NCBI GenBank assembly: GCA_018664485.1
Contig: JABJOE010000005.1
Span: forward strand, 15,581 to 79,580
DNA length: 64,000 nt
DNA from: Candidatus Uhrbacteria bacterium
GTDB lineage: Bacteria; Patescibacteriota; Patescibacteriia; UBA9934
Reading direction: 5' to 3'
Shown here: in pieces, positions 55,679 to 57,968 of the stretch
How the letters are laid out: each line of letters begins with the position of its first letter
Position numbering within the stretch: the first letter of the stretch is position 1
The notes under the pieces: generated by a model
Seen by the model: only the letters and a program-made list of their open reading frames with translations
What the model was told of the DNA's origin: nothing
Database searches by the model: none
Program-made: the position numbers and the translations under genes

Positions 55679-55706
55679 GAATCCCGAACTAGGTTCGGGA
55701 TTCTTT
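55679..55706. terminator. terminator: perfect 11-bp hairpin GAATCCCGAAC-TAG-GTTCGGGATTC + TTTC
   Basis: between hpf copy 2 (+) and convergent small gene 55728..55874 (-). Confidence 0.65.
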
Positions 55707-55727
55707 CGTGCAAGACGAGGAGTTGTC

Positions 55728-55874
55728 TTACTCGTAGGTGTTTGCGGCCATTGCCTCGGTGATCACTGTCGCGACCACGTCGGCGCTCCCCAGGTTGTGA
55801 GTGTTGGCCTTCGCCATCAGAATGGCGATGACTACAATCAGGGCCACGATGACGTGGTGTGGGCGGATTTCCAT
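55728..55874 (-). CDS. small (48 aa) single-TM protein
   Basis: minus-strand ATG 55874 preceded by GGAGGT RBS and (CAA)10 leader; MEIRPHHVIVALIVVIAILMAKANTHNLGSADVVATVITEAMAANTYE; not in ORF track (<60 aa). Confidence 0.45.
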   Translation of the reverse strand: MEIRPHHVIVALIVVIAILMAKANTHNLGSADVVATVITEAMAANTYE

Positions 55875-55888
55875 TTTCCGTTACCTCC

Positions 55889-55922
55889 GGTTGTTGTTGT
55901 TGTTGTTGTTGTTGTTGTTGTT
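55889..55922. repeat. microsatellite (TTG)10 [= (CAA)10 in the 5'UTR of minus-strand small gene]
   Basis: ggttgttgttgttgttgttgttgttgttgttgg; explains spurious poly-Val/poly-Leu plus-strand ORFs. Confidence 0.9.
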
Positions 55923-55926
55923 GGGG

Positions 55927-56103
55927 TCAGTCGATGTAGATGATCTCGCACGTGTCAGGTGGGGTCACCTTGCAGGTGGCTTCCGACCCTTTCTCGGCGA
56001 TGATCACAAGATTGCTTACTTCTCGCTCAGCAACATATCCGTGTACGAACATGCGACCGAAGAATGCGGCGAGCACCATTGCTGCAACCGTAAGGTGGCG
56101 CAT
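55927..56103 (-). CDS. small (58 aa) signal/TM peptide (MRHLTVAAMVLAAFFG...)
   Basis: GGAG RBS 5 nt upstream of ATG 56103; R1 repeat 35 nt upstream. Confidence 0.45.
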   Translation of the reverse strand: MRHLTVAAMVLAAFFGRMFVHGYVAEREVSNLVIIAEKGSEATCKVTPPDTCEIIYID

Positions 56104-56137
56104 TAAGTCTCCGGGGAATCGATGCATGTTGCATCTA

Positions 56138-56185
56138 GGTTCACGAAATGCAGGAACGTGTCGTGCACTTTGTGAACCCTTGGAG
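56138..56185. repeat. R1 repeat copy a (48 nt, internal inverted repeat GGTTCAC...GTGAACC)
   Basis: identical to 56958-57005. Confidence 0.85.
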
Positions 56186-56214
56186 GCTATCGGCGGTATA
56201 TCTTCAAATCTTTT

Positions 56215-56256
56215 GCCTCAGAGATCACGACGTAGTCATGGTCTCAATTGGCGGCC
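56215..56256. repeat. R2 repeat copy a (42 nt hairpin element GCCTCAGAGATCACGAC-GTAG-TCATGGTCTC-AATTGGCGGCC)
   Basis: four copies with compensatory substitutions in the stem. Confidence 0.8.
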
Positions 56257-56298
56257 ACAGAAAGATTCCTGGGCCTAGGGGAGATGACGGTTGCCATC

Positions 56299-56505
56299 TC
56301 AGAAGATGAAGTAGTGCCGGTTGGTGATGTCTTCACCGTTTTCTGCGATGTCGGGGGTGGGCAGGGCCTCGATCGAGTCGAGTGCCTCGACCAGAGCAGG
56401 GCTCAAGTCGGGGGACATCACAGCCTTGAGGGCAGCGTTGTCGTCGGTGGTGGTTGAGGTTCCGGTGCTCAGAGCGAGCAGAACGGCAAGGATGGTGTTG
56501 GACAT
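56299..56505 (-). CDS. small (68 aa) secreted acidic peptide (MSNTILAVLLALSTG...)
   Basis: signal-peptide-like N-terminus; track ORF trimmed to internal Met. Confidence 0.4.
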   Translation of the reverse strand: MSNTILAVLLALSTGTSTTTDDNAALKAVMSPDLSPALVEALDSIEALPTPDIAENGEDITNRHYFIF

Positions 56506-56584
56506 ATTGTCCTCCGTTGTGGGGTGGGTGGGTGTCACCAAGCATGTAATGACACTTACTCAACTCACAACTTTTATTTGCATC

Positions 56585-56626
56585 GCCTTGGAGGTCACCA
56601 GCTAGTGATGATCTCAGTTGGCGGCC
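56585..56626. repeat. R2 repeat copy b (diverged)
   Basis: GCCTTGGAGGTCACCAG-CTAG-TGATGATCTC-AGTTGGCGGCC. Confidence 0.7.
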
Positions 56627-56681
56627 TAGAGAGATGATTCTAGGACCACGGTTGAAGAGTGAAGGAAGGTTGGTTGGTAGT

Positions 56682-56927
56682 TCAGGCAGGTGTTCCTTGG
56701 TACATCGTCCCGAAGGCCAGGAGGAGCAAGAACATCTTGGCCAGAACCATCATGCTGCCGCCCCAGATTGCGGTCGCTCCACGATCGTAGTGGGGCATAC
56801 GACGCATCCGAATCATCAGGATGGCGGCGATGGTCAGCGATGCGGCGAAGCCGACGCTGGAAGTAGTGATGCCTGCATCGGTGCAGAGCATGGCGAGAAA
56901 TTCAGCTTTGAGTTGGGTCGGGGTCAT
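56682..56927 (-). CDS. small (81 aa) two-TM membrane protein (MTPTQLKAEFLAML...)
   Basis: GGAG RBS 6 nt upstream of ATG 56927; R1 copy b 30 nt upstream. Confidence 0.45.
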   Translation of the reverse strand: MTPTQLKAEFLAMLCTDAGITTSSVGFAASLTIAAILMIRMRRMPHYDRGATAIWGGSMMVLAKMFLLLLAFGTMYQGTPA

Positions 56928-56957
56928 GGTGGCTCCAGTGTGATGCATATGCATCGA

Positions 56958-57005
56958 GGGTTCACGAAATGCAGGAACGTGTCGTGCACTTTGTGAACCC
57001 TTGGA
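56958..57005. repeat. R1 repeat copy b
   Basis: 48/48 identical to copy a. Confidence 0.85.
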
Positions 57006-57020
57006 GCTCGTATTACGTAT

Positions 57021-57064
57021 TGCCTCAGAGATCACCACAAGCATGTGATGGTCTCAATTGGCTG
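57021..57064. repeat. R2 repeat copy c
   Basis: GCCTCAGAGATCACCAC-AAGCA-TGTGATGGTCTC-AATTGGCTGG; G-C to C-G covariation at stem position 9. Confidence 0.75.
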
Positions 57065-57101
57065 GTAGTTGGACAAGAAATGTCCGCGTACCAAGTGCTG
57101 T

Positions 57102-57281
57102 TTAGCCTGTGATCATCATGAGGAAGAACAGACCGCCGAGCATCGTGCCCCCGATCAGGAAAAGTACCGTGATTAGTGCTTTCGCTAAATCTTCGTCCTT
57201 TCGTGTTTTTTCTTCTTGTGATCTGATTCTGATCTCGTTGGCTCGTTTCTGCTCATAACTTGGCTGGCGTCGTTTTCTCAT
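57102..57281 (-). CDS. small (59 aa) tail-anchored membrane protein (basic N-terminus, C-terminal TM)
   Basis: MRKRRQPSYEQKRANEIRIRSQEEKTRKDEDLAKALITVLFLIGGTMLGGLFFLMMITG; not in ORF track (<60 aa). Confidence 0.4.
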   Translation of the reverse strand: MRKRRQPSYEQKRANEIRIRSQEEKTRKDEDLAKALITVLFLIGGTMLGGLFFLMMITG

Positions 57282-57327
57282 TGCTTCTACCTATTCGGGT
57301 TACTGCCCGATATGTGGAGGCGTATTT

Positions 57328-57369
57328 GCCTCAGAGATCACGACATAGTCATGGCCTCAATTGGCAGCC
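57328..57369. repeat. R2 repeat copy d
   Basis: GCCTCAGAGATCACGAC-ATAG-TCATGGCCTC-AATTGGCAGCC. Confidence 0.75.
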
Positions 57370-57424
57370 GCGGAACAGTGAAGTTCCGCGGCAGTCAGCT
57401 ACGTAGTAACGCAGGTGATGGGCC

Positions 57425-57628
57425 TCAGAGGGAGGCGAGGACATCAGGATTGATGTCGTTGGTCCGGGGCGTGATGCCCATGACCGGGATGGTCGCGCCG
57501 CCGTTGGGCTGGAGCGAGTCCATGGTGTCGCTGAGCTTCACCATGGACTCGTGCATTTCGTAGCACGGAATGGCGAACCCGCCGATGGTGAGTGCGAAAG
57601 CGAGGCCGAGGTGAATGATTCGAGTCAT
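57425..57628 (-). CDS. small (67 aa) secreted/lipoprotein-like peptide (MTRIIHLGLAFALTIGGFAIPC...)
   Basis: GGAGA RBS 6 nt upstream of ATG 57628; track ORF trimmed. Confidence 0.45.
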   Translation of the reverse strand: MTRIIHLGLAFALTIGGFAIPCYEMHESMVKLSDTMDSLQPNGGATIPVMGITPRTNDINPDVLASL

Positions 57629-57677
57629 GATGGATCTCCGAGTTGTAGTGCACTGAGTTGTGCTTGATCCTGACCTA

Positions 57678-57706
57678 ATAGTAGCACGTTTTAGCACTTT
57701 TGTCAA
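57678..57706 (-). promoter_or_regulatory. promoter TTGACAAAAG-N13-TACTAT (minus strand) heading the small-peptide array
   Basis: complement of 57701-57706 = TTGACA; 17-nt spacer; TACTAT = complement of 57678-57683. Confidence 0.5.
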
Positions 57707-57968
57707 GTTACTCTGGACAGAAAAGAGAGAGAAAACCTTATAAAACAAGCATAAAACAGTCTTTTTGTTTTGTATCTTTGAACTAAAATTCAATAACTTT
57801 TTAGCCTAATAAAGACAAAGTTGTACGCCTTGTCATTTTCGACATTTTCAGGCACAATAGCGACGTTATACCCAACGGAATGGCCTTTAACATGTACTTT
57901 CTAAAAGTGCCTTAAGGTCTACGGGATAAAAACTCATATACAGATTTTGGATAACTCTATTTAAAGTT

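Follow-up and report, generated by a model that had tools for sequence, protein, structure and literature searches.

How does a block of GC-rich DNA carrying six small genes, no two of them similar, come to lie between hpf and secA in a marine Candidatus Uhrbacteria genome, and what do the repeated palindromes that separate those genes do there? The block occupies positions 55700-57710 of the 64,000-nucleotide (nt) stretch analysed here, hereafter the window (contig JABJOE010000005.1 of the metagenome-assembled genome GCA_018664485.1, positions 15,581 to 79,580). Its GC content is 0.537 versus 0.455 for the whole window, and stays between 0.49 and 0.57 across the block when measured in 300-nt segments. 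The reading that we favour, and to which as a composite we give about an even chance, is that an accessory operon specific to this lineage has been inserted in the spacer between hpf and secA, and that this operon is polycistronic, encodes small proteins, carries modular RNA hairpins between its cistrons and turns over its genes in the manner of cassettes.

The array runs on the minus strand, and along that strand its parts follow one another as promoter, A, GC hairpin, R2, B, R2, R1, C, R2, L2, D, R2, R1, E, (CAA)11, F and terminator. Here A to F are the genes, R2 is a hairpin element found after stop codons, and R1 and L2 are two types of structured leader found before ribosome-binding sites. 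The array had been noticed in a first-pass annotation of the window, and we state below, where the relevant results are given, what became of its claims.

Small genes of the array

The six open reading frames (ORFs) are 48-81 amino acids (aa) long and do not overlap one another. Gene A (57425-57628, 67 aa) has an N-terminal signal-like segment and ends in ASL; gene B (57102-57281, 59 aa) has a basic N-terminus and a C-terminal transmembrane segment; gene C (56682-56927, 81 aa) has two hydrophobic segments; gene D (56299-56505, 68 aa) has a short signal-like N-terminus and an acidic tail; gene E (55927-56103, 58 aa) has a hydrophobic N-terminus; and gene F (55728-55874, 48 aa), the last gene, has one transmembrane segment. 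Every peptide therefore contains a hydrophobic stretch (N-terminal in A, D and E, C-terminal in B, two in C and one in F), which bears out the first-pass claim of a signal peptide or transmembrane segment in each, D having only its short signal-like N-terminus. Pairwise comparison of the six finds no similar pair, also as claimed. The further claim of a GGAG-type ribosome-binding site before each ORF stands for A, C, D, E and F, where GGAG or GGAGG lies 6-10 nt upstream of the ATG, and fails for B, whose ribosome-binding region offers only AGGTAG.

The description of these ORFs as tandem, GC-rich, minus-strand genes is upheld by composition, by independent gene calls and by conservation. GC at third codon positions (GC3) in the minus-strand frames is 0.64-0.85 (0.53 in B) versus 0.29-0.45 in core genes, and the distribution of GC over codon positions is of coding type in all six, whereas the overlapping plus-strand ORFs have no such signature. 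All six are annotated by NCBI, as hypothetical proteins HON52_01870-01895. Homologues of A and F occur in sister genomes, which we found through MurB (77-80% identical), and they lie on the array strand only. Gene A is represented in all three sister arrays (L096, L099 and L103; tblastn E ~1e-5 in L096 and L099), and a four-way alignment of the family shows a shared signal-like N-terminus, an SM..L..T..I.E core, a C-terminal ASL and indels in multiples of codons. Gene F has a homologue in L103, likewise in terminal position (tblastn E = 1.5e-7), with a ratio of nonsynonymous to synonymous substitution (dN/dS) of 0.53. In up to four lineages the A and F frames are uninterrupted, although their amino-acid sequences have diverged by 40-60%. 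The plus-strand ORFs, which the first-pass annotation had allowed might be the conserved ones, match the sister loci only where they translate R1 or R2. We consider these comparisons to show that the small genes are real.

No relatives of the peptides were found beyond the clade. Searches of 5.8 billion proteins with C and A returned self-matches only, and for D an exhaustive HMMER search recovered the query and three long repeat proteins; the latter are artefacts, because their scores are summed over many weak repeats. No small peptide matches a family in Pfam, NCBIfam, PHROGs or PADLOC, and tblastn and blastn searches of phage and plasmid collections gave no match to the array peptides. For B, E and F the homologue checks comprised these four libraries together with the collections of phages and plasmids.

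Gene A has diverged much more than the non-coding sequence on either side of it, and its dN/dS is 0.98-1.98 in every pair. The divergence and this ratio together suggest allele replacement or diversifying selection acting on a putatively secreted peptide.

Conserved hairpins after and before the genes

The R2 element is 38-41 nt long and occurs four times on the array strand: between A and B (57328-57365, 70.1 bits), between B and C (57022-57062, with a loop 3 nt longer), between C and D (56585-56622, the most divergent copy) and between D and E (56215-56252, 73.2 bits). The copies start 59, 39, 59 and 46 nt past the stop codons of A, B, C and D, respectively. The predicted fold is an 11-base-pair (bp) stem with one mid-stem mismatch and a loop of normally 3-6 nt, extended by a 3-bp outer stem across a small internal loop. 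With filters off, an R2 covariance model finds no copy outside the island in the 64 kb, and no match to R2 or R1 appears in 100 shuffles of the window.

The first-pass annotation had argued for a hairpin from compensatory changes among the window copies. One stem pair is indeed G-C in two of them and C-G in the other two, and 86 of 500 shuffles reach the score. A single compensatory pair is not significant within the window, so covariation in R2 becomes convincing only when copies from other genomes are added. With 11 copies from five loci, 89.6% of the paired cells are occupied by pairs, four pairs show double changes and none of 500 shuffles reaches the score (slid controls pair at 27-49%); one covarying pair is split five C-G to five G-C among the 11. 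The mid-stem mismatch keeps its place among the copies, and GTGATCTCTGAGG, the right arm, hardly varies. G-U pairs (for example U-G in nine of the 11 copies) give the sense strand 138 of 154 paired cells versus 130 of 154 for the antisense strand. This evidence supports R2 as a conserved hairpin, as opposed to a chance repetition.

A second GC-rich hairpin, P0, is formed by an inverted repeat directly upstream of the first R2 (57362-57397, minus strand), and folds together with R2 at z = -5.75. Hairpins of variable sequence are predicted at the same place, between stop codon and R2, in eight of nine cases. We found neither internal promoters nor U-tract terminators at R2. A 14/16 match to the left half of R2 (TTGCCTCGGTGATCAC) also lies within the 3' part of gene F, at 55751-55766 and in the orientation of the true copies, and is possibly a relic R2.

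Upstream of genes C and E stands R1, a 48-nt element whose two copies (56959-57006 and 56138-56185) are 100% identical and extend to 66 nt at 94% identity. As had been described, R1 is an inverted repeat, here with 20-nt arms, and it ends close to the gene it precedes, its 3' end lying 31-34 nt upstream of the ATG of C and E; the window contains no third copy. The complete leader of C (56925-57010, minus strand) consists of CUCC, a 17-20-bp hairpin, a small GAUGCAU hairpin, GGAG and the ATG, and that of E (56101-56189, minus strand) contains the identical 48-nt core. Folding energies are -38.3 kcal/mol (z = -7.1) for C and -32.9 kcal/mol (z = -4.5) for E. Both leaders have a predicted minimum-energy fold in which GGAG, the ribosome-binding site, is paired with a CUCC at the 5' edge of R1 (in the gene C fold as GCUCCA with UGGAGC), and this helix would close a junction that holds the long R1 hairpin and the small GAUGCA...UGCAUC hairpin.

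Leaders of the R1 type also precede the third genes of L096 and L099. The consensus of four leader sequences has 21 pairs, of which 97.6% of the cells are paired, and none of 500 shuffles reaches its score. Seven of the 17 hairpin pairs show compensatory changes, and the CUCC:GGAG pairing is retained in all four sequences. In L099 and L103 a model of the R1 leader also matches the leader of gene 2, with scores of 30-33 bits; it matches nothing else in the window. The sister genes that follow R1 leaders encode larger proteins, of 78-99 aa, at least one of which (about 97 aa) looks soluble when judged by eye without a predictor.

Gene D has a leader of a different type, L2 (56503-56584, minus strand), with a closing helix GUUGUG/CACAAC and an inner hairpin whose loop contains AUUACAUGCUUG, followed by GGAGG. 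Homologues of L2 were found in two places in L096 and one in L097, giving 18 pairs of which five are compensatory. A structured leader thus stands directly before the ribosome-binding site of three genes, of the R1 type for C and E and of the L2 type for D. Searched against Rfam, only tRNAs reach threshold in the window; the best island matches have E values of 0.37-4.7, and relaxed thresholds add nothing. By these comparisons we show three families of hairpin modules, R2, R1 and L2, whose predicted structures are conserved and whose positions are fixed relative to stop codons and ribosome-binding sites.

Before gene F, in place of a leader, there is a trinucleotide repeat, (AAC)11 or (CAA)11 on the minus strand and (GTT)11 on the plus strand (55890-55923; 11.3 copies, 100% matches). 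It lies between the stop codon of E and the ribosome-binding site of F, and is the only microsatellite of such length in the 64 kb. The first-pass annotation had counted ten units and placed them before the first gene; there are 11, and they precede the last. It had also regarded the tract as length-variable, which the available assemblies do not bear out: the tract is 34 nt long in all six contigs, from six samples, that cross it. Three further contigs end inside the tract, which could be compatible with heterogeneity and is not evidence for it. At the homologous junction in L103 the tract is absent and the stop codon overlaps the ribosome-binding site of F, and (CAA)11 is specific to the present lineage.

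Replacement of genes between sister genomes

The hpf-secA gap differs widely among the sister loci. It measures 2.7 kb in L096 (GC 0.58), 1.8 kb in L099 (GC 0.55) and 346 nt in L097 (GC 0.47), which has no array. The R2 model matches three times in L096, once in L099 and once in L097, always inside the gap and on the array strand. A first, stricter R2 pattern had no match in the viral, genome and metagenome collections, which lack the present genome; a relaxed pattern led to two metagenome contigs, L102 and L103, the latter a close relative of L099. In L096, L097, L099 and L103 R2 is confined to the hpf-secA gap (~20 kb of each sister locus was searched). L102 (contig Ga0210043_1000050), which comes from a different genome with GC 0.44, carries R2-like hairpins with the same invariant right arm at 433-485 and 769-821, ~30 nt upstream of ORFs of 80 and 116 aa and beside a tRNA-Arg gene and a 482-aa ORF, so the hairpin family is not confined strictly to the spacer between hpf and secA. 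R2 is absent from relatives whose MurB is 66-67% identical.

Apart from the homologues of A and F, no ORF of the sister arrays is related to one in the window. The pattern of replacement is clearest between L103 and L099. The promoter and 5' untranslated region (UTR) are 92% identical between the two, and the coding sequence of A is 60% identical; from the stop codon of A through R2 and the leader identity is 93%, rising to 99% from R2 onward. Homology then stops exactly at the ATG of gene 2, and restarts at the stop codon of the last gene. At the level of sequence this alignment shows ORFs replaced wholesale between nearly identical non-coding frames. Units without a gene exist as well: the L096 array ends in an R2-L2 unit that has no ORF, and L097 retains that unit only.

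Several other features of the sister loci deserve mention. In L099 (11739-11873, minus strand) the arms of an R2 are intact and are split by a loop insert of ~95 nt, after which an R1-type leader follows. In L096, ~900 nt of GC-rich sequence (13100-14000) lie between the array promoter and secA, with no convincing ORF and no Rfam match, and are absent from the window. L096 also has a gene for a 232-aa Y1 (IS200-like) transposase (19300-20450), with the palindrome GTGTTGTAAC..GTTACAACAC on both sides and a duplicated target stretch of ~60 nt.

Promoter and genomic setting

The array is headed by a sigma-70-type promoter at 57678-57706 (minus strand) with TTGACA, a 17-nt spacer and a TG-extended TACTAT, matching the consensus at ten of 12 positions. 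That a single promoter heads the array had been proposed before and is confirmed here: the site is the only strong promoter-like one on the array strand, and its 16-mer CTTGACAAAAGTGCTA is found exactly in L096, L099-L101 and L103. At the far end the sole terminator-like hairpin, an inverted repeat (55679-55703), is common to the array and to the convergent hpf.

The promoter belongs to a wider pattern. The window contains ~10 GC-rich patches, whose ORFs have no or sub-threshold Pfam matches and a GC3 of 0.49-0.75 (0.29-0.45 in recognisable genes). The 10-mer TTGACAAAAG occurs exactly seven times (661 plus, 4379 plus, 7730 minus, 9105 minus, 19353 plus, 48535 plus and 57697 minus) and twice with one mismatch (23872 plus and 39988 minus), and each occurrence lies at the upstream edge of a GC-rich patch and has a -10 box after it, in many cases TG-extended. 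It seems that the accessory genome has a single type of promoter and a composition foreign to the rest; the shared promoter suggests either a common origin or a common regulation. The array is the most elaborate member of this class of orphan-gene transcription units with a common promoter signature. One of these TTGACAAAAG promoters opens a GC-rich stretch of ~550 nt (48535-49120) that is rich in hairpins, is closed by a terminator and has no notable ORF and no Rfam match; it may be a non-coding RNA or a decayed gene. Sister genomes have an orphan ORF of 132-135 aa at the equivalent position.

The array is flanked by the terminator hairpin of the second hpf copy (55337-55642, Pfam S30AE) and by the upstream region of secA, which starts at 57981. 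A search for direct or inverted repeats of at least 9 nt at the island borders found none. The genes murB, hpf and secA adjoin one another in several distant relatives (SecA 45-62% identical), none of which has such a GC-rich array; SecA as an anchor in species-representative genomes led only to these distant relatives, and it was the MurB homologues that gave informative sister loci. The same strain is present at ~100% identity in assemblies from at least 12 samples, some of them marine, and because its contigs are so nearly identical no variants of cassette content or repeat length are seen within the population. Elsewhere in the 64 kb we note that there are two hpf (S30AE) genes, the other at 5643-6017 (124 aa, versus 101 aa for the copy beside the array), and a tandem repeat with a period of 396 nt (30384-32752, six copies, 80% matches) inside a 1374-aa ORF without a Pfam family, presumably a repetitive surface protein.

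Alternative explanations

The most interesting alternative is that R2, alone or with the adjoining leader, is a DNA recombination site, at which a recombinase encoded elsewhere inserts and excises units of ORF plus R2 behind a fixed promoter. The architecture is closely similar to that of integron cassette arrays, of clusters of attC sites lacking integrases (CALINs) and of Vibrio superintegrons with their near-identical VCR repeats. As in those systems, unrelated and apparently promoterless ORFs, mostly of unknown function, are co-oriented behind one end promoter, and each is followed by an imperfect palindrome with a mid-stem irregularity (here the conserved mismatch) and a variable loop (3-6 nt, and ~95 nt in the L099 copy). 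The cargo varies and the repeats are conserved: close relatives differ in ORF content with palindromes 93-99% conserved, a locus with one R2 (L097) and a unit without an ORF both exist, and ORF composition is uneven within one array (GC3 0.53 in B versus 0.64-0.85). However, a regular-expression scan of both strands of 55700-57710 finds no RYYYAAC...GTTRRRY core sites (shuffles have a mean of 0.24), and the identity of R2 as a canonical attC was rejected on that ground. At 38-41 nt versus 57-141 nt for attC, the hairpin is also half the usual size. The gene calls and ORFs that were checked in the window, mainly in 1-31 kb and 30-63.5 kb, include no integrase or other recombinase family. Furthermore, the conserved unit here includes the ribosome-binding site up to the ATG, the boundaries of replacement fall at start and stop codons and not inside R2, and the G-U pairs, weakly, favour RNA; the evidence leans toward a structure at the RNA level. 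Recombination of this kind is therefore, in our judgement, unlikely.

R1 and R2 may also be small selfish or neutral palindromes, comparable to repetitive extragenic palindromic (REP) sequences or miniature transposons, that spread locally and have no role in expression. REP sequences and the bacterial interspersed mosaic elements (BIMEs) of proteobacteria stabilise upstream mRNA, and are mobilised by Y1 transposases of the REP-associated tyrosine transposase (RAYT) family. R2 resembles them in being an imperfect palindrome of ~40 nt placed after stop codons, between cistrons or at the 3' end in operons, where a role as a barrier to 3' exonucleases is plausible. The two R1 copies are 100% identical over 48 nt though their flanks and downstream ORFs are unrelated, which suggests recent copying or gene conversion, and L102 has R2-like hairpins in another genomic context. 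Against this, neither R1 nor R2 has a copy outside the island in the 62 kb of flanks or elsewhere in the ~20 kb of each sister locus. R2 is known from one locus as far as seen, has no GTAG-type head and is coupled to specific leaders, and the window has neither a RAYT nor any other Y1 transposase homologue. A link through the Y1 transposase of L096 was considered and rejected: that gene has its own palindromes, which are unrelated to R2. The positions of the repeats are, moreover, fixed with respect to stop codons and ribosome-binding sites, and compensatory change keeps their structures across ~20% divergence of the MurB protein. We hold selfish or neutral repeats to be quite unlikely.

That R1, R2 or both are double-stranded DNA operators, bound by a dimeric regulator that represses the operon or internal promoters, is very unlikely. 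Both elements are palindromic, R1 stands ~30 nt from start codons, and the right arm of R2 (GTGATCTCTGAGG) is more invariant than pairing alone demands, all of which an operator could account for. An operator would not, however, be expected to show many compensatory changes along whole stems, no promoter-like sites adjoin R1 or R2, and the conserved G-U positions are mismatches only in a hairpin and irrelevant in a duplex. The suggestion in the first-pass annotation that R1 could be an operator loses ground for the same reason, given the seven compensatory pairs along its 17-bp stem.

It had also been proposed, from their size, that the peptides might be type I toxins or bacteriocin-like, and that R1 and R2 could act as antisense regulators from the plus strand. 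In its full form this alternative sees the array as several type I toxin-antitoxin modules, or else as a cluster of bacteriocin and immunity genes, in which structured 5' UTRs silence the peptides and antisense RNAs are made from the plus strand. Leaders that sequester the ribosome-binding site are found in type I toxin mRNAs (hok, tisB and aapA1), RNA thermometers and translational riboswitches, and R1 resembles them in that its upstream CUCC is predicted to pair with GGAG at the base of a long hairpin. The peptides, at 48-81 aa, are small and hydrophobic, and the tandem organisation would fit a toxin or bacteriocin cluster. Yet the predicted sequestering leader stands before C and E only, and R1 has no antisense RNA gene, no core resembling a ligand-binding one and no Rfam match, and precedes unrelated proteins. 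There is no toxin, bacteriocin, immunity or defence family match in the four libraries, and the sister R1 leaders precede proteins of 78-99 aa that include the soluble-looking one. The conserved gene A looks Sec-secreted, its GG is not conserved in homologues and it has no double-glycine leader. The neighbouring gene calls that were checked include neither an ABC transporter nor a C39 peptidase. As to antisense regulation, we found no promoter-like site on the plus strand near R1 or R2, and the G-U pairs slightly favour the sense strand. We regard toxin or bacteriocin modules as most improbable.

Least credible of all is that none of the small ORFs is a gene and that the island consists of foreign DNA in decay or of non-coding sequence, for although C, A and D have no homologues outside the clade, the dN/dS of gene A is ~1 or above and some gene callers chose a plus-strand ORF over C, the codon-position GC is of coding type in six of six and a correctly spaced GGAG precedes five of six, the A and F frames are intact in as many as four lineages, where indels come in multiples of codons and the termini are conserved, and the plus-strand ORFs are not conserved.

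The observation in the first-pass annotation is real, and the locus is more structured than was noted there: it had missed the L2 leader type, the CUCC of R1 that pairs with the ribosome-binding site, and the way in which ORFs are replaced like cassettes. The functions that were proposed are mostly not supported.

A proposed modular operon

We return to the polycistronic small-protein operon as the reading that we prefer. Hypothetically, the array would be transcribed as a single mRNA of ~2 kb, on which the R2 hairpins would act as 3' barriers or processing sites and the leader hairpins as 5' stabilisers that also control the access of ribosomes. A leader, its ORF and the R2 that follows would in this way form a self-contained expression module. 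We further propose that the conserved modules double as anchors for homologous recombination, because they are the only conserved sequence, and that strains of the clade exchange or replace ORFs by means of them. The products would be small proteins of the cell envelope, either secreted or held in the membrane, and selection on them would be diversifying or relaxed.

Intercistronic processing hairpins are familiar from the RNase III sites of the phage T7 early region and from the stem-loops of Rhodobacter puf and E. coli pap. R2 shares with these its placement between cistrons and its conserved, mismatch-bearing stem, features thought to define separately stable segments of a transcript. It is unlike them in that a stem of 11 + 3 bp is short for RNase III, and in that processing at R2 is only proposed.

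The (CAA)11 tract could serve in this operon as an unstructured spacer before the ribosome-binding site of the last gene. In studies of translation, CAA repeats are commonly used as an unstructured leader (PMC12415969, PMC2991327). For a trinucleotide repeat with a regulatory role, the nearest precedent is (GAA)n at the vlhA promoters of Mycoplasma gallisepticum (PMC6258824). Both are long, perfect trinucleotide repeats just upstream of a gene for a small envelope protein in a reduced genome; however, (CAA)11 lies between a stop codon and a ribosome-binding site within the operon and not upstream of a promoter, and it shows no length variation in six assemblies.

Several points weigh against this interpretation. 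That the array is transcribed as one message, that R2 is processed and that the leaders gate the ribosome-binding site are steps that we infer. R2 has no U-tract, and the RNase or other protein that would act on it is hypothetical. The gap between sense and antisense pairing in R2 (138 versus 130 cells) is small, so these hairpins could equally form in single-stranded DNA. The covariation in R2 comes from few, related sequences (11) in an alignment fitted to the model, and that in R1 from only three distinct stems. The search for further copies of the repeats covered 64 kb of a genome of ~1 Mb. Gene B has no leader and F has a repeat instead, and the modular rule is therefore not universal. 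Finally, the dN/dS of ~1-2 in gene A could mean weak constraint, and not selection for change.

Implications for candidate phyla radiation bacteria

The locus is best filed under kinds of system that are already known, namely accessory operons with hairpins between their cistrons and hypervariable loci of a cassette-like type. What is new here, judging from the alignments, is three undescribed structured motifs with covariation, in RNA or possibly in single-stranded DNA. A more far-reaching interpretation, which we consider doubtful, is that the array represents a previously undescribed, integrase-less gene-cassette system of the candidate phyla radiation. Hairpin-delimited modules would then be exchanged among strains and would diversify small secreted and membrane proteins, and the array would be the most elaborate member of a class of GC-rich orphan-gene units, all with the TTGACAAAAG promoter, that extends across the genome.

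Bacteria of the candidate phyla radiation have tiny genomes, are thought to live attached to other cells, and devote a large share of their genes to small envelope or secreted proteins. Among the features that make this locus notable is R1, a leader predicted to mask the ribosome-binding site. If the modular operon that we propose is correct, the locus would offer a concrete architecture for how such a repertoire of small envelope and secreted proteins may be generated, expressed and renewed.

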